Source of the DNA: Sulfurimonadaceae bacterium | GTDB lineage: Bacteria > Campylobacterota > Campylobacteria > Campylobacterales > Sulfurimonadaceae | Direction: 5' to 3' | NCBI GenBank assembly: GCA_041562555.1 | Contig: JBFEXS010000032.1 | Coordinates: 1-19,416 of the forward strand | Length of the DNA stretch: 19,416 bases | Shown: positions 13,202-18,881 of the stretch, piece by piece | Layout: the number at the start of each line of letters is the position of its first letter | How positions within the stretch are numbered: position 1 is the stretch's first letter | Translations under genes and position numbers: made by a program | The notes under the pieces: model-generated | The model's database searches: none | The model's input: the letters and a program-made list of their open reading frames with translations, nothing else | What the model was told of the DNA's origin: nothing

Positions 13202-14032
13202 TTAGATCTTTATTAAGACCTTGTCCAAGATCCTTGTTGGTAGAATGCGCTTTAAACTTCCTAGAATATGTGTGGCTGAGGTGTTATAATATCGTGGTTT
13301 CGGGGTTTTGGACTCAAGGGCATGAATGACATTTTGGATAACGACTTTAGAGTCCCGTGTAAAGGGGTCTTTTTTCTTCTTTCCCTCATAAGGTAACAGC
13401 TCTTTTTTATAGGCTTGCTCAAAAACGGTAGGTTTGCCATGAATGTGCTCATAATATTTCTGCGTCGCATTTTTGCGAAAATCAGAATGCACCGGTCCGG
13501 TATTGATAGTACAGATATGGATATCATCAGGAGCCAGTTCAAGACGTAAGGTGTCACAGAGCCCTTCGATGGCATATTTTGTTGCGTTATAGGCCCCTCT
13601 GAAACGTAAAGAGATCAGTCCAAGTACCGAAGAGTGCTGAATGATACGTCCGTACCCTTGCTGACGCATTATCGGAATGATCTGACGCGTCATCTCATGC
13701 AGGCCGAATAGGTTTGTCTCAAACTGTTCTTTAAGAACCGAAGTAGGGATGTCTTCAAGTGCTCCGGGCTGTCCGTAACCGGCGTTGTTAAAGAGTGCAT
13801 ACAGTGTACCCCCGGTCTGTTTCAAAACCAGTTCAAGAGTCTGTCGGATACTCTCCGGTTGAGTGACATCAAGCATATAGGCATTCAGTCCCTCACGTGT
13901 CAGACGTTTTACATCTTCTTCTTTTCGTGCAGTTGCGAAGACCCTGTATCCATGTTTGTGCAGATAATGGGCTGTATCATAACCGATACCGCTGGAGCAT
14001 CCTGTAATAAGAATAGATTTTTCAATAGACAC
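13202..14032 (-). CDS. Short-chain dehydrogenase/reductase (YbbO-like)
   Basis: ITGCSSGIG, NNAG, SS and YNATK (YxxxK) motifs; GTG start with AGGAG RBS. Confidence 0.93.
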   Translation of the reverse strand: MSIEKSILITGCSSGIGYDTAHYLHKHGYRVFATARKEEDVKRLTREGLNAYMLDVTQPESIRQTLELVLKQTGGTLYALFNNAGYGQPGALEDIPTSVLKEQFETNLFGLHEMTRQIIPIMRQQGYGRIIQHSSVLGLISLRFRGAYNATKYAIEGLCDTLRLELAPDDIHICTINTGPVHSDFRKNATQKYYEHIHGKPTVFEQAYKKELLPYEGKKKKDPFTRDSKVVIQNVIHALESKTPKPRYYNTSATHILGSLKRILPTRILDKVLIKI

Positions 14033-14077: not shown

Positions 14078-14085
14078 ATTTTAGC
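14078..14085 (-). promoter_or_regulatory. Putative -10 box (gcTAAAAT) for the SDR gene
   Basis: ATTTTAGC on the + strand reads GCTAAAAT on the - strand, 45 nt upstream of the GTG start; matches gnTAnaAT. Confidence 0.5.
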
Positions 14086-14137
14086 TAAATCCTAGAGAGA
14101 TTATAGTAGACTTGCGCAAAAACAGAGTGAGATACGA

Positions 14138-14557
14138 ATGAAAAACAAGATGGTATTTAGCGTGATCGCCTTGCTTTTGGTAGCAACAGGTCTCTATTTC
14201 CTTATTATGCAAGAGAAAGGGCCTAAGCCGATCGATCCAAAGAATGTCGTGACGAAGACGGTCAATATGAGCGGGATGACCTGTCGATCATGTGAGATAG
14301 CGATCGAAAAAGTCAGTAAGAATACTGGTGTTGTTAAGATCAAGGCTTCGAGTCCGGATCAAAAAGCGGTTGTTGAATATGATCAGACGCAGACGGATAT
14401 CAATGCTATTATGGAAGCGATAGAGAAGAAAGGGTTTACCCCTGTGAGTTATGAGGATGAAGAAGGTCTGCATGAGTTAAATGCAAGTGTCGAGGAGAAG
14501 CACGAGATGAAATGCGGCGATGGTAAATGCGGCAGCGGCAAGTGCGGAGCTAAATAA
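14138..14557 (+). CDS. Heavy-metal-associated (HMA) domain protein with N-terminal signal/anchor and C-terminal KCG-repeat tail
   Basis: MKNK plus a hydrophobic segment; GMTCRSC in a CopZ/MerP-like domain (A.VEYD...T....I..AIEKKGF); ends MKCGDGKCGSGKCGAK. Confidence 0.9.
   Translation: MKNKMVFSVIALLLVATGLYFLIMQEKGPKPIDPKNVVTKTVNMSGMTCRSCEIAIEKVSKNTGVVKIKASSPDQKAVVEYDQTQTDINAIMEAIEKKGFTPVSYEDEEGLHELNASVEEKHEMKCGDGKCGSGKCGAK
14510..14554 (+). repeat. Three 15-nt-period coding repeats (KCGDG/KCGSG/KCGAK)
   Basis: AAATGCGGCGATGGT AAATGCGGCAGCGGC AAGTGCGGAGCTAAA, then TAA. Confidence 0.9.
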
Positions 14558-14591: not shown

Positions 14592-15707
14592 ATGGAATAC
14601 TCAAGAGAATTTATAATAGCACTTTTTGATCTTAGTAATGCGATGGCCCCTTATATTCTCTTTGGTCTAGTGTTCGCAGGGATTTTACACGAAATCGTAC
14701 CGGAGAGTATTGTTACGAAACATCTGGGTAAAGAGAGTGTCTCTTCCGTTGTCAAGTCAACGATTTTCGGTATTCCGCTTCCGGTATGTTCATGCGGGGT
14801 GATTCCCCTTGCTACAAGTATTAAAAAAAGTGGTGCATCCAAGGGCGCGACACTTTCATTTTTGATCTCGACACCGATTACGGGGATTGATTCGATTCTT
14901 GCTACTTATGGGATGTTTGGATGGGTCTTTACCCTGTATCGGGTCTTCACTTCCATGGTTATCGCAACCTTTGCAGGTATCATGACGAACGTCTTTGATA
15001 AAACCCTGGAGGAAGAGGTCAAACCAAGTTTCAGTGCGGTCGCCCCTCCTGCATCTACTCCCGGAAGCTTCTCTTTTGCACCGGCCCAGCCAAAGGAAGA
15101 GGAAGTGACCTCTTGCTGTTCGACAGAGAGTTCTTGTTGTTCAAGCACTTCGGGTACCCCGTCCAAGTTTTCCTTGAAGAAAGCACTTTCCTATGCCTTT
15201 GGAACGCTATTAAGCGATATCGCAAAGCCTTTGTTGTGGGGACTTCTTATCGGTGCATTGATCACTGTTGCAATCCCTCAGAACCTCAGTGACCTCCTAG
15301 TGGAGTATTCATGGATCTCTTACATCATCGTTATCGCTATTGCGATCCCTATGTATGTCTGTGCTACTGCTTCTTTGCCTATTGCGGCGGGATTGATGCT
15401 CTCAGGAGTGAGTGCAGGTGCCGCTTTTGTCTTTTTAAGTGCAGGTCCCGCGACCAACACTGTGACGATCGGTGTCGTTAGGAAGATGCTGGGTTCACGT
15501 TCTTTGTATATCTATCTCGGCAGTATCGCTTTTGGGAGTATTCTGTTTGGTTTGGGATTGGATTATGTCTTCTCTGTCAATGATATCAACCCAAAATCTC
15601 TTGTACACATGCATGAAGAGGTCGGTGTATTAGAAATCGCAAGCAGCATCGTGCTTTGGTTGATGGTGTTTTATTATATCATCAAGCCGTATTTGAAAAA
15701 GGCTTAG
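14592..15707 (+). CDS. SO_0444-like / DUF318 (ArsP_1) permease, putative Cu/Zn efflux
   Basis: Multiple TM segments; PLPVCSCGVIP, SFLISTP.TG.DS, PMYVCATASLP and FL.AGPATN motifs; central SCCS-SCCS loop; C-terminal HMHEE. Confidence 0.85.
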   Translation: MEYSREFIIALFDLSNAMAPYILFGLVFAGILHEIVPESIVTKHLGKESVSSVVKSTIFGIPLPVCSCGVIPLATSIKKSGASKGATLSFLISTPITGIDSILATYGMFGWVFTLYRVFTSMVIATFAGIMTNVFDKTLEEEVKPSFSAVAPPASTPGSFSFAPAQPKEEEVTSCCSTESSCCSSTSGTPSKFSLKKALSYAFGTLLSDIAKPLLWGLLIGALITVAIPQNLSDLLVEYSWISYIIVIAIAIPMYVCATASLPIAAGLMLSGVSAGAAFVFLSAGPATNTVTIGVVRKMLGSRSLYIYLGSIAFGSILFGLGLDYVFSVNDINPKSLVHMHEEVGVLEIASSIVLWLMVFYYIIKPYLKKA

Positions 15708-16054
15708 TTGTCACTAAGGCCTTGAACCTTCAGCAGTATTACTTGGCTTACTTTTGAGGGATCTGTATTGAAAAAGAGCAGGGCATCTTCATACTCTTCG
15801 CTCTGAGGGGTCAGGGTATGTGTACTGACCTCACAGTTTAAACTGTTTAATGCGGGTGTCTTCTCATTGAAAACCAGTTGCATGGTATCCGAACTGTGTA
15901 AGACTTCATTTTTAATAATAAGGTAGAAATTTTGCATATCTTTGACGTAAAGTGAAGTGATAGGAAAAGATATTGCCGTGTCCTTTTCACCTGTCTTGAC
16001 TAAAAAGTTCTTTTGGCTTTGGATGAATCGAATATGTAGCTTAGAAAGTGACAT
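15704..16054 (-). CDS. Hypothetical protein, degenerate pyridoxamine 5'-phosphate oxidase-like (split-barrel) family
   Basis: Start reassigned to ATG 16054 (AAGGA RBS), giving 116 aa. FIQSQKNFLVKT, MQLVF, P.SEEYEDAL..F and QVILLKV resemble PNPOx-like proteins. Stop overlaps the permease stop (TTAG 15704-15707). Confidence 0.65.
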   Translation of the reverse strand: MSLSKLHIRFIQSQKNFLVKTGEKDTAISFPITSLYVKDMQNFYLIIKNEVLHSSDTMQLVFNEKTPALNSLNCEVSTHTLTPQSEEYEDALLFFNTDPSKVSQVILLKVQGLSDN

Positions 16055-16103
16055 TGTGTTTCCTTGGAAATAATAGGCAAAATTATTGCATATTTTTCCA
16101 AGA

Positions 16104-16119
16104 AGCAGATGAATCTGCT
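16104..16119 (-). terminator. Possible weak hairpin/terminator after the 434-aa gene
   Basis: AGCAGAT-GA-ATCTGCT inverted repeat 15 nt after the stop; only a short U tract (UCUU) follows on the - strand. Confidence 0.35.
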
Positions 16120-16134
16120 GAAAGATGTCTCGTT

Positions 16135-17439
16135 TTAGTCGTTTAGACCAACACTCCAACCTTGTCTCCAGTCGTCATCAGGTGTATACGCACCGACAAA
16201 AAGAGCTGTGTCAAAGAATGTGTTCTGGGTAAGAGCACGTACATCTTGTGCCTGTGTAATGGTATCAATGGTATTACTGTCGCTTTGCATGAAGATGTCT
16301 TTGATTTTTTCCAATGAAACACCCGTTGCCCGTTTAACAGCGAAGGTCTCTTCAAGGCAGTTGTTCAAGGAGATACTTTGCAGTTCAATATTCCCTTTTT
16401 TGGCACTGGCGCGATCACGTATTCCAAAACATTTGTTGAAGCCTTTGACATACCCGTTGATCAACGTTGCTCCCGAACCTTTACGCAGTAAAATCCCTTC
16501 ATGGGAGTCTTTGCTACCATGCATCTCAAAGTTCGCGATAATCGGTTTTGCTATCGGTGTCGCCAAGAAGTTTGAACTCAGGTTGTCAGCTTCAATACCC
16601 CGTGCATTTCTCGAGGTAGTCGTTGTCTGCTTGATATAGACATATTGCATTTTTCCCTGGTATCCATGGTCTGTATCGATATTGTCGTCTCCGTTCCCGA
16701 TTAGGACGATATGTGTCAGATTGACGGTTCCACCCCATAGTTCAATCCCGTCATCAAAATTATTATAGACTTCCACATAATCAATTTGTGTCTTATCACC
16801 GACCCCGCCCAGGCTCAGACCATTGAGTTCCTTATCCATACCGACCTCATTGCCTGCATATTTGATGAGGACATACTTCAGGACACCGGAATTATCATGG
16901 GGATCATTTCCTCCAAACTCTCCACCGGTAAGAGCAAATTCAAATCGCTCCAGGCCATCGACATTGGTTGGGGCATTTCCGGCGATTACCACTCCTCCCC
17001 ATTCTCCTTTATGGTGTTTTGAAGCCAATCCGAGAACATCTTTTTTTGAGGTGAAGACGATAGGTTCTTCTTTTGTCCCCTCCGCAAGTATCTTGGAACC
17101 ACGAGAGATAAAGAGATAGTCATCCCCGCTCTGTCCAAATATCGTTGTGCCCGCTTCGATCTTTAAGGTGGCTTGATTACTGTTGTCACCACCGATGATG
17201 ACTTCATCTTCAAGTGCCCATAACTTGTCTTTTGTTAAGGTGATGTTTTTAGTGTAAACGCCGCTGAGCTTACATACATCCTGACCACCTAAGCCTTGAG
17301 AGAACTTTGAAAAATCAGGGCAGGATGCATGCTCCTGACTTATCATCTGAGTCGAAGCAAAGAGTTCCATCTTATCACTCATCAGTGCCGTCGTGATCCC
17401 AAGTGCGATCGCAAAACTAATAACGAATATCTTAATCAT
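16135..17439 (-). CDS. Secreted protein of a widespread uncharacterised family, probable right-handed beta-helix
   Basis: Signal-like N-terminus; LKIEAGT, A.GT.EEPIVFTS, GEWGGVVIAGNAP, DNSGVLKYV.I.YAG, NGLSLGGVG, DDGIELWGGTVN, DD..DTD.GY.G and GIEADN; AAAGGG RBS. Confidence 0.85.
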   Translation of the reverse strand: MIKIFVISFAIALGITTALMSDKMELFASTQMISQEHASCPDFSKFSQGLGGQDVCKLSGVYTKNITLTKDKLWALEDEVIIGGDNSNQATLKIEAGTTIFGQSGDDYLFISRGSKILAEGTKEEPIVFTSKKDVLGLASKHHKGEWGGVVIAGNAPTNVDGLERFEFALTGGEFGGNDPHDNSGVLKYVLIKYAGNEVGMDKELNGLSLGGVGDKTQIDYVEVYNNFDDGIELWGGTVNLTHIVLIGNGDDNIDTDHGYQGKMQYVYIKQTTTTSRNARGIEADNLSSNFLATPIAKPIIANFEMHGSKDSHEGILLRKGSGATLINGYVKGFNKCFGIRDRASAKKGNIELQSISLNNCLEETFAVKRATGVSLEKIKDIFMQSDSNTIDTITQAQDVRALTQNTFFDTALFVGAYTPDDDWRQGWSVGLND

Positions 17440-17609: not shown

Positions 17610-18881
17610 ATGCATACATTAGAACAGCTTTATTCAGGCGAATTAAAAGGGATCAAGAGACTTCAGTTGTCGCAGGGACTTCGTTCTTTCCCTGAAGAGA
17701 TTTACAGCCTCTCAGACTCTCTTGAGATATTGGACCTGAGTCATAATCAACTAAGCACGCTCCCTCCTGATTTGTACCGTTTGAAAAAGCTGAAGATTGC
17801 GTTTTTCTCACACAACCTTTTTCGGGAAGTCCCTGATGTGTTTAAGAAATGCACACAGTTATACATGTTGGGTTTTAAAGCAAACAAGATTGAGCATTTT
17901 GCTGAAGAGATCTTGCCTTCGAGCATCTCCTGGTTGATTCTGACGGATAATAGAATAGAGAAACTCCCCAAATCTATTGGACAGTTGAAACTACTGCGAA
18001 AGTGTGCTTTGGCAGGGAATCAGATACAAGAAATCCCCCAAGAAATATCGCAATGCAAGAACCTGGAGTTGATCCGTCTTTCTGCAAACAAAATTGAAGA
18101 GATGCCGCCTGCGCTTTTGGAGTTGCCCAAACTGTCATGGCTGGCTTTTTCAGGCAATCCATGTTCGCCTTCCATGGACCTTTCACTTCGTGAAGTCAGC
18201 TACAGCGATTTGGAAGTGGAAGAGCTTTTGGGAGAGGGTGCTTCCGGTGAGATATATCGTGCCTACTCCAAGAGTCTGGATCAAGAGGTGGCATTTAAAT
18301 TGTTCAAAGGCTCGATCACAAGTGACGGATATGCGAAGGATGAGATGAATGCCTATATGAGTACCGGTGAGCACAGGCATCTTATCAAAGTATTGGCAAG
18401 GCTGGAGGGTGAGGAGCGTCTTGGTCTGATCCTTGAGTTGATCTCAAAGGAGTATACGAGTTTGGGGCTTCCTCCGAGTTTAGATACCTGTACCCGTGAT
18501 ACTTTTGAGGCGGGAAGGATGTTTACGGCGGAGATGATTATGGATATTGCAAAAGCCATGTCCTCTGTGTGTAAACATCTGCATGCAAAAGGATTGATGC
18601 ACGGGGATCTGTATACGCATAATATTTTGATCAATACAGAAGGTATGAGCTATTTGGGCGATTTTGGTGCAGCGAGTTTTTATAATACAAAAGATGATAT
18701 ATATGAGAAAATCGAAGTACGCGCATTTGGATGTCTTCTGGAAGACCTTTTAAATCTATGTGCGGATCAGGACACCCGATTGTATGAGAGCTTAAAAGAA
18801 GTCAGTCTAAAGTGTATGGATATGCAGCCTCATCGCAGACCCTTATTCACAGAGGTATATGCAGAGCTTTTATCGCTATGA
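17610..18881 (+). CDS. Leucine-rich-repeat protein kinase family protein
   Basis: About 7 LRRs of roughly 23 aa (LEILDLSHNQLSTLP, WLILTDNRIEKLP, LELIRLSANKIEEMP), then LGEGASG, VAFK, HGDLYTHN and GDFG; no signal peptide or TM. Confidence 0.92.
   Translation: MHTLEQLYSGELKGIKRLQLSQGLRSFPEEIYSLSDSLEILDLSHNQLSTLPPDLYRLKKLKIAFFSHNLFREVPDVFKKCTQLYMLGFKANKIEHFAEEILPSSISWLILTDNRIEKLPKSIGQLKLLRKCALAGNQIQEIPQEISQCKNLELIRLSANKIEEMPPALLELPKLSWLAFSGNPCSPSMDLSLREVSYSDLEVEELLGEGASGEIYRAYSKSLDQEVAFKLFKGSITSDGYAKDEMNAYMSTGEHRHLIKVLARLEGEERLGLILELISKEYTSLGLPPSLDTCTRDTFEAGRMFTAEMIMDIAKAMSSVCKHLHAKGLMHGDLYTHNILINTEGMSYLGDFGAASFYNTKDDIYEKIEVRAFGCLLEDLLNLCADQDTRLYESLKEVSLKCMDMQPHRRPLFTEVYAELLSL

Follow-up and report, generated by a model that had tools for sequence, protein, structure and literature searches.

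Peptides with repeated EGKCG motifs, such as HvfA (oxazolin), are usually taken to be substrates of MNIO enzymes, and a survey reports them almost never without one, in 67 of 2583 genomes according to its Table 3 (PMC12452194). The modification of HvfA is now assigned as a 5-thiooxazole (10.64898/2026.07.17.739211, PMC13097082). HvfBC needs O2 and in vitro prefers a signal-peptide leader (10.64898/2026.07.17.739211), small leaderless fragments are modified by HvfBC in vivo (PMC11252979), and FonBC fully modifies a DGKCG variant and does not tolerate Pro (PMC13097082). Without the modification HvfA takes up 2-3 Cu(I), but it forms disulfides and cannot compete with BCA for the metal (PMC11252979), and Bufferin 1 depends on its MNIO to function (PMC11626156). 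Whereas a preliminary description of the present locus held such precursors to be small stand-alone peptides, which do occur with KCG repeats, the survey also describes the precursor fusions MerC|Buf1, MerC|Buf2 and Buf_EGKCG|EF-hand (Antoine et al. 2025, PMC12452194). A second relevant system is PcuC of B. diazoefficiens, a chaperone extended at its C-terminus by a Cu-binding Met/His stretch (Canonica et al. 2019, PMC6669012).

The gene considered here lies in a window, the whole stretch of 19,416 nucleotides that was analysed, from a genome of the Sulfurimonadaceae (G000 below), and encodes a 139-aa protein (14138-14557, plus strand) whose C-terminus reads ...EEKHEMKCGDGKCGSGKCGAK and whose tail is MKCGDGKCGSGKCGAK. 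The features of the locus are as follows.

13202..14032, minus strand: divergent SDR oxidoreductase, a conserved neighbour in the genus (Pfam, NCBIfam, relatives' loci)
14080..14107, plus strand: conserved upstream element with the palindrome TTTAGCTAAA and a -10-like TATAGT box (8 upstream regions aligned)
14138..14557, plus strand: gene for an anchor, an HMA domain and the tag, 139 aa (ORF list, Pfam, NCBIfam)
14153..14209, plus strand: N-terminal hydrophobic helix, aa 6-24, by its predicted topology a likely uncleaved N-in/C-out anchor
14258..14437, plus strand: HMA domain, aa 41-100, MerP/CopZ fold (PF00403 and model)
14273..14293, plus strand: GMTCRSC metal-binding loop, Cys49 and Cys52 (invariant in 13 of 13; GMTCxxC in 119 of 120)
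14438..14506, plus strand: predicted extra beta-hairpin and acidic linker, His112 and His122 (model, homolog alignment)
14507..14554, plus strand: MKCGxGKCG tag with 3 Cys (126, 131, 136), predicted to be disordered (motif search, homologs, model)
14592..15707, plus strand: SO_0444-family Cu/Zn efflux permease (NF033936, 388.9 bits, cut-off 300)
15111..15140, plus strand: Cys-rich permease loop SCCSTESSCC, a possible metal acceptor or sensor to judge from its sequence

The architecture first described, an anchor followed by an HMA domain with GMTCRSC, an acidic linker and a C-terminal KCG tail, is borne out. PF00403 matches aa 41-100 above its cut-off in a Pfam profile search (E 2.4e-12), the GMTCxxC loop is present, and the AlphaFold model predicts a ferredoxin-like MerP/CopZ fold with an rmsd of 1.0-1.3 A to 1osd and 6ff2; the tail is modelled with low confidence (pLDDT 46-65). 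The Cys residues lie at 49, 52, 126, 131 and 136 and the His residues at 112 and 122, the best hydrophobic stretch is aa 6-24, and a lipobox Cys is absent. The protein shares the HMA fold and GMTCxxC loop of MerTP, MerP and CopZ, its CopZ and MerP equivalog scores all being under the family cut-offs (NCBIfam). The MerTP model NF033556 aligns aa 6-101 with profile positions 85-184 of 186 (59.9 bits, cut-off 180), and P0235, a full MerTP above that cut-off with the same tail, is 42% identical to the window protein across its whole length. The gene product thus resembles a MerTP fusion reduced to its C-terminal half, and as the aligned half includes the anchor, the latter is likely the last MerT helix. 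Unlike MerTP, it has this last helix only, the full MerT transporter with its Cys pairs being absent, and it has an added tail and an SO_0444 permease instead of merA nearby. With the anchor oriented by the topology of MerT, the MerTP match, the basic N-terminus and lipoprotein homologs suggest that HMA domain and tail face outward. Since the HMA domain derives from mercury-type MerTP, the metal is not settled; copper is most likely for the tag, and Zn, Cd or Hg are possible given this origin and the permease.

Five matches to the KCG motif in the genome, against none in each of ten triplet shuffles, are not due to chance. The tail is kept in 119 of the 120 best matches to a profile that included it and, with the HMA domain alone as query, in 28 of 29 homologs, the single exception stopping exactly where the tail would start; the close relatives carry the labels Sulfurimonadaceae or Campylobacterales, and a search of the ESM Atlas with the tail gave no usable match. 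Written as MKCG-DGKCG-SGKCG, the tail has the repeated (E/A)GKCG motif of Buf_EGKCG and HvfA, and the HvfA-like character given to it at the outset holds, though the protein scores 13.6 bits against NF050137, under the cut-off of 19.5. Like HvfA/oxazolin and fontiphorin (the Buf_EGKCG or captophorin precursors of NF050137), it combines KCG repeats and 5-residue Cys spacing with export and a copper context. It differs from them in carrying a tail of 2-4 Cys on a folded, anchored chaperone with a score below the NF050137 cut-off, in having a probably uncleaved, MerT-derived helix and then a folded HMA domain where those have a cleavable Sec signal and a low-complexity core, and in the absence of an MNIO gene beside the tagged HMA gene and from most carrier genomes. 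The threefold (G)KCG of the preliminary description is correct for this protein, but the number is not fixed: among the best 120 homologs (profile including the tail) 45 have 2 Cys per tail, 52 have 3 and 21 have 4, which rules out an unmodified tri-Cys clamp as a fixed unit. The two linker His are likewise present but conserved in close homologs only (29/29 and 24/29), and 31 of 120 homologs have no His in the tail region. A C-terminal sorting signal is also ruled out, the tag occurring without a membrane helix and also directly after signal peptides.

The permease gene begins 34 bp 3' of the gene for the HMA protein, an order repeated in four of five close loci and also in the relative G416, and the two genes are likely co-transcribed. 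The upstream palindrome and TATAGT box are a likely promoter/operator. The TTTAGCTAAA element was not found elsewhere in the genome as a regulon motif, and no operator common to the tagged genes of this genome was found. SO_0444 is required under Zn/Cu stress (PMC3219624), and in Nitratiruptor both Cu and Cd induce it (PMC10092412). Neither the domain content of the SDR oxidoreductase nor the relatives' loci gave a sign that it joins the tag system. Three further genes of the window are a 151-aa ORF at 15704-16159, kept 3' of the permease in relatives, and a secreted 434-aa Gly/Asp-rich protein at 16135-17439, neither with a Pfam or NCBIfam match, and at 17610-18881 a fusion of LRR and protein kinase, a homolog of which immediately follows the tagged HMA gene of G495 (L105).

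The HMA protein is one of four ORFs with KCGxGKC in this genome. A tagged lipoprotein of 117 aa (contig C5, 12573-12926) lies directly behind a CusA-type transporter, a tagged DsbD_2 membrane protein (C12, 8915-9682) precedes ccoN, and a classical precursor is followed by hvfB, hvfC and doxX (C106, 1-2081, locus L001). The lipoprotein has KCG tags at both ends and inner Cys; its score exceeds the NF050137 cut-off, and it would receive a RiPP annotation. In a phylum sample of 400 genomes a strict DNA pattern matched 45; we left out G271, in which the matches are not in an open frame, so that 44 motif genomes remain. Among the matches listed we read 91 tagged ORFs from loci of this sample. Pfam assignment of 20 representatives gives as fusion carriers YtkA, PCuAC, NosL, cytochrome c, DsbD_2, HMA, the Cus lipoprotein and helical periplasmic proteins, besides stand-alone secreted peptides, and MerTP or MerT-HMA proteins are also among the carriers. 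On our reading of these sequences the tag sits at the N- or C-terminal end of proteins with signal peptides or membrane helices, and the portable C-terminal tag first proposed, with like tails on other Campylobacterota proteins, is thereby confirmed and extended to either end. The KCG tail is a portable tag on many exported, mostly copper-handling proteins. It resembles the bufferin fusions in placing a precursor-type Cys module on a metal-related protein outside the cytoplasm and, for some MerTP-tag forms, in a mercury-operon context, whereas those fusions are few fixed chimeras and the KCG tag is one short N- or C-terminal tag on at least eight unrelated carriers, most of the host genomes having no MNIO. 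For the tag on these carriers, and for the link to a GMC oxidoreductase described below, we found no description in the openly accessible literature; supplements to the papers cited may list such proteins.

With a metagenomic query that contained the tag, 114 of 120 PCuAC homologs end in it, several of them labelled Gammaproteobacteria, and tagged PCuAC also occurs in G254 and G394; an EF-hand lipoprotein is a further carrier. Like PcuC, the tagged PCuAC proteins join a folded Cu chaperone to a flexible, here putative, C-terminal second site, the tag filling the same position in PCuAC; unlike PcuC, the putative binder has Cys ligands in a fixed KCGxGKCG context in place of scattered Met/His. 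The search for K-C-G-x-G-K-C suggested in the preliminary description succeeds in listing tagged proteins in Campylobacterota but is unspecific outside, 71 of the 80 metagenome loci listed (119 reported) being a different CxxxxCxxC Fe-S motif. The loci L146-L225 carry MKCG[VIL]GKCG[RH]C, which agrees letter for letter with the beginning of the tag, in flavoprotein electron-transfer subunits, which we take to be AsrB/PyrK-like.

Several individual loci of tagged genes may be recorded. A marine gammaproteobacterial PCuAC clade (L179:760-1233 and P0261-P0380) ends in MKCAAGKCG, and a low-GC contig (L187:236-1346) has a tagged EF-hand lipoprotein 3' of a stand-alone GKCG repeat peptide. Full fusions of MerT, HMA and tag stand 3' of ArsR-like genes in L106, L123, L107, L108 and L112, two of them with a merA-like gene next, and untagged MerTP is present in G420 and G425. 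In L021, L027, L069, L073 and L140 tagged cytochrome c genes lie beside an SO_0444 permease, most with an ArsR-like regulator as well, recalling the Cu/Cd-induced Nitratiruptor cluster (PMC10092412).

That no MNIO gene lies in the window, as first stated, agrees with the ORF list; the single PF05114 match of this genome sits on contig C106, and neither the window nor the homolog loci that we read contain MNIO and DUF2063-type genes clustered with a tagged HMA gene. C106 is colinear with G416 at 73% DNA identity and has typical composition, and this synteny with a close relative rules out contamination as the source of hvfABC. In the phylum sample PF05114 is above its cut-off in 16 of 400 genomes; an MNIO occurs in 11 of the 44 motif genomes, always adjoining a precursor, and in none of the 19 genomes with fused tags (carriers assigned by hand). 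Of the 224 genomes in the family set, 18 have a tagged HMA protein, and 14 of these have no MNIO. The remaining four (4/18 against 12/206 in the rest, Fisher p 0.03) amount to a weak enrichment, which counts against a reading of the tag as independent of MNIO. Among closed or nearly closed tagged genomes HvfB was found in 0 of 5 and HvfC in 0 of 4, with G074 as a positive control; absence was judged with PF05114, the HvfB protein, PF09836 and NF050145, a set of searches (positive in G074) that a very divergent MNIO could escape. An assembly artefact is ruled out for G505, G495, G591, G169 and G291, which are closed or nearly closed, and for G414 and G416, in which the hvfBC gap lies inside a contig.

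These last two genomes bear directly on the proposal, made with the first description, that the tag is modified in trans by an MNIO. G000, G410 and G413 have the order precursor-hvfB-hvfC-doxX; at the syntenic site G414 (L129) and G416 (L128) have precursor-doxX without hvfBC and keep the tagged HMA protein, G416 keeping the tagged DsbD_2 and the tagged lipoprotein as well. Compared with the G000 site they appear to form a natural knockout pair for hvfBC, and together with the counts of 4/18 and 0/19 they speak against that proposal as a general mechanism; the suggested test of co-occurrence with DUF692 likewise finds hvfABC in this genome but the tags mostly in genomes free of MNIO. On gene content, the tag is independent of hvfBC. 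DoxX trees group MNIO-positive and MNIO-free loci together in the clade of the genus and do not tell loss from gain. Among tagged proteins, the repeat contains Pro in 16 of 77 where the genome is free of MNIO and in none of 12 that are MNIO-adjacent (p 0.11), and the NF050137 cut-off is passed by two tagged proteins and one stand-alone peptide from MNIO-free genomes. The stand-alone KCG peptides resemble HvfA in their link to DoxX/HvfX (NF050144, 118.9 bits, cut-off 80), and they are Met-rich, the window tail having a single Met. Among the 21 Sulfurimonadaceae/Sulfurovaceae rows listed in the available supplement of the survey (PMC12452194), some apparently mislabelled, 17 show no DUF692 and 20 no EGKCG protein; with most rows lacking EGKCG proteins, the published profile seems to miss these peptides.

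The MNIO-free peptides are often clustered with DoxX, a Gluconate_2-dh3-type small subunit and a GMC flavoprotein, and the tag follows this GMC oxidoreductase, apparently a non-canonical Tat-type FAD/[3Fe-4S] enzyme, rather than MNIO. The GMC occurs in 56 of 400 phylum genomes, in 31 of 33 MNIO-free motif genomes as against 1 of 11 with MNIO, and in 17 of 18 tagged-HMA genomes; these counts are drawn among kin, which overstates significance, and are partly physically linked, so that Fisher values are descriptive. Among 34 genomes of the family the motif is present in all 21 that are GMC-positive, and the GMC is absent from all 10 that are motif-free, in 5 of which a relaxed pattern gives matches of background type only. 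This genome (C80, 3356-5552, L362: a twin-arginine small subunit and a GMC without the His/Asn pair) and at least seven relatives have both GMC and MNIO; tags with neither of the two found occur in G367 and G341. Of the 24 GMC genomes without the strict motif we read 22, and in 13 of these the enzyme adjoins a variant KCG peptide, while in a further 3 DsbD_2 ends in a KCG tail; no KCG peptide was found in the five GMC genomes of family f7 that were tested, where the GMC often adjoins MsrPQ-like genes. Within about 5 kb of 24 of the 46 GMC loci, which include one unrelated sugar GMC, there is a KCG peptide; these cases span seven families and include a Sulfurospirillum plasmid that also carries msrPQ. 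On this plasmid (L300, NZ_CP118374.1, 156131-165756) msrQ, msrP, a sensor kinase, a regulator and a KCG peptide are divergent from the small subunit and GMC genes, and the module lies near a Tn3 transposase.

DsbD_2 offers a test of the association between tag and GMC that is free of physical linkage. The protein was found in 59 of 60 genomes searched, and a KCG tail, after ten Cys-Cys tails were reassigned by reading, occurs in 9 of the 30 genomes with the GMC and in none of the 29 without it, eight of the latter being MNIO-positive. Otherwise this C-terminal position is taken, according to lineage, mostly by CH, CC, HHCH or His-rich tails.

The GMC protein resembles BcGDH (E 1e-40), with which it shares FAD-binding GMC domains, a [3Fe-4S] Cys triad (43 of 43) and a twin-arginine small subunit 5' of it, the RR motif being found in 21 of 23 small subunits; these are features of the FAD dehydrogenases of BcGDH/FDH type with a hitchhiker subunit (6a2u; PMC6719666). 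It differs from BcGDH in its neighbours, which are KCG peptides, DoxX or MsrPQ, and in the replacement of His476 (Leu in 43 of 43) and Asn519 (Pro or Ala in 43 of 43), the catalytic pair proposed for BcGDH (PMC6719666). No triheme cytochrome subunit was seen beside the GMC, and a FastTree phylogeny of the GMC roughly tracks the host families.

That most tag genomes lack MNIO and have a GMC instead suggests that the tag is a second metal site independent of the known peptide chemistry, and the metal-handling carriers, the interchange with metal-ligand tails and the precedent of PcuC point to the same function. We put at about even the chances that the tag is such an MNIO-independent second metal site with probably unmodified Cys, serviced by the GMC system. 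The HMA CxxC would hold one ion tightly, and the tail thiolates would catch or buffer further ions at the outer face of the membrane, the tail handing ions between the HMA site, the adjacent SO_0444 exporter and other periplasmic clients in the manner of the Met/His tail in PcuC. As unmodified HvfA binds Cu(I) weakly and forms disulfides, a helper is to be expected, and the exported GMC with DoxX would probably keep or restore the tail Cys in a usable state; an exported enzyme would reach tails on membrane-anchored proteins, which the cytoplasmic, leader-preferring HvfBC would presumably reach poorly. Where present, HvfBC may be an optional upgrade, chiefly for the stand-alone peptide. Several points argue against this reading. 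The strict conservation of Lys and Gly next to the Cys has the appearance of a site recognised by an enzyme; HvfA without its modification goes over to disulfides and fails against BCA, and Bufferin 1 depends on an MNIO; disulfide reduction would oppose the usual electron flow of the GMC family; G367 and G341 have tags with neither enzyme found; and the GMC persists without a KCG peptide in the f7 genomes and is not sufficient, 21 of 30 GMC-positive DsbD_2 being untagged.

In a rival reading the Tat-exported GMC/[3Fe-4S] enzyme would itself be a second, oxygen-independent KCG maturase and the tag a post-export modification signal giving any periplasmic protein a high-affinity copper site. The chemistry would run from thiol to thioaldehyde to a thiooxazole-like heterocycle (-4 Da), the electrons passing to the membrane, perhaps via DoxX. 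The arrangement peptide-DoxX-small subunit-GMC replaces the usual peptide-MNIO-partner-DoxX, a KCG peptide lies near 24 of 46 GMC loci, which span seven families and a plasmid, the distribution of MNIO over the motif genomes is close to complementary to that of the GMC, and the DsbD_2 tag is absent from all eight MNIO-positive, GMC-negative genomes. The enzyme retains the [3Fe-4S] triad and RR motif while His476 and Asn519 are replaced throughout, and GMC-type oxidases can turn thiols into thioaldehydes. To our knowledge, on the other hand, no flavoprotein makes 5-thiooxazoles; the GMC also persists without KCG peptides, often next to MsrPQ-like genes, and both enzymes are found in this genome and at least seven relatives. 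We regard this second maturase as rather unlikely, and equally doubtful is the bold reading that low-oxygen Campylobacterota mature KCG Cys with a Tat-exported, His/Asn-less FAD/[3Fe-4S] dehydrogenase in place of the O2-dependent MNIO (for HvfBC: 10.64898/2026.07.17.739211). Were it true, action after export would make MKCGxGKCG a universal bolt-on signal for folded periplasmic and membrane proteins, with a RiPP-type copper clamp on HMA, NosL, PCuAC, a cbb3 assembly factor and cytochromes, bufferin-like metallophores would have a second enzymology that arose by convergence, and the motif would mark proteins for modification throughout the proteome. The MsrPQ-like neighbours suit instead an unlikely alternative in which the tag and the Met/Cys-rich stand-alone peptides protect the metal site of the carrier by sacrificially scavenging oxidants or reactive sulfur, metal binding being secondary and recycling falling to periplasmic repair systems (MsrPQ, GMC-DoxX). 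It is favoured by the Met-rich peptides, by the msrPQ genes that adjoin GMC and peptide at several loci, as they do on plasmid NZ_CP118374, and by the precedent of MrpX/YedYZ; the carriers, heavily biased to metal chaperones, the alternation of the tag with CH, CC and His-rich tails in one slot and the single Met of the window tail do not.

Quite improbable is the RiPP model, in which the tag works only once cytoplasmic HvfBC makes 5-thiooxazoles in trans and MNIO-free tags are relics. It can draw on hvfABC in this genome, on a contig syntenic with a close relative, on the weak enrichment of MNIO (4/18 against 12/206) and on the modification of leaderless fragments in vivo (PMC11252979) and of a DGKCG variant by FonBC (PMC13097082); as the DGKCG repeat is acceptable to FonBC, incidental modification in this genome is possible. 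Yet MNIO is absent from 14 of 18 tagged-HMA and all 19 fused-tag genomes, closed ones included, the tags are intact in G414 and G416, and the MNIO-free peptide-DoxX clades seem old. The Pro residues (16/77 in MNIO-free genomes, 0/12 otherwise, p 0.11), which FonBC does not tolerate, and the in vitro leader preference of HvfBC (10.64898/2026.07.17.739211) also stand against the model, and HvfBC modification as a requirement for tag function is largely refuted. Very improbable, finally, is a structural iron-sulfur cluster or Zn site in the CGxGKC loop, like the first half of the flavoprotein CxxxxCxxC. MKCG[VIL]GKCG[RH]C gives the same pattern in the 71 of 80 listed metagenome loci, and PF10418 matches the tagged lipoprotein weakly (E 0.008), but the third and fourth ligands are missing, the Cys number varies from 2 to 4, and cluster assembly is unexpected on carriers with Sec-type export.

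With the unmodified second metal site as the preferred reading, what appears to be new here is a portable EGKCG/bufferin-type tag that is for the most part not coupled to MNIO but to a periplasmic flavoprotein as yet uncharacterised. A large motif set conserved without MNIO serves as a movable tag on proteins of copper delivery to N2O reductase, cytochrome oxidase and efflux systems, in hosts that include abundant sulfur-oxidisers and marine Gammaproteobacteria, and current HMMs can call such proteins 'oxazolone/thioamide-modified RiPP' where no MNIO is found. The non-canonical GMC gives a handle on the role of the unmodified motif, on the purpose of DoxX/HvfX and on a possible second maturation chemistry.

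Two further Cys-rich proteins were seen. In G049 a membrane protein with a C-terminal MKCQAGKCG (L283:3909-4601) adjoins a KCG peptide and GMC genes, and in the genome of the window a 96-aa protein (C105, 2403-2693) has a Cys-rich tail of another type (SCGTG...SCSTGSCGPCGC) and adjoins a paralog without the tail.
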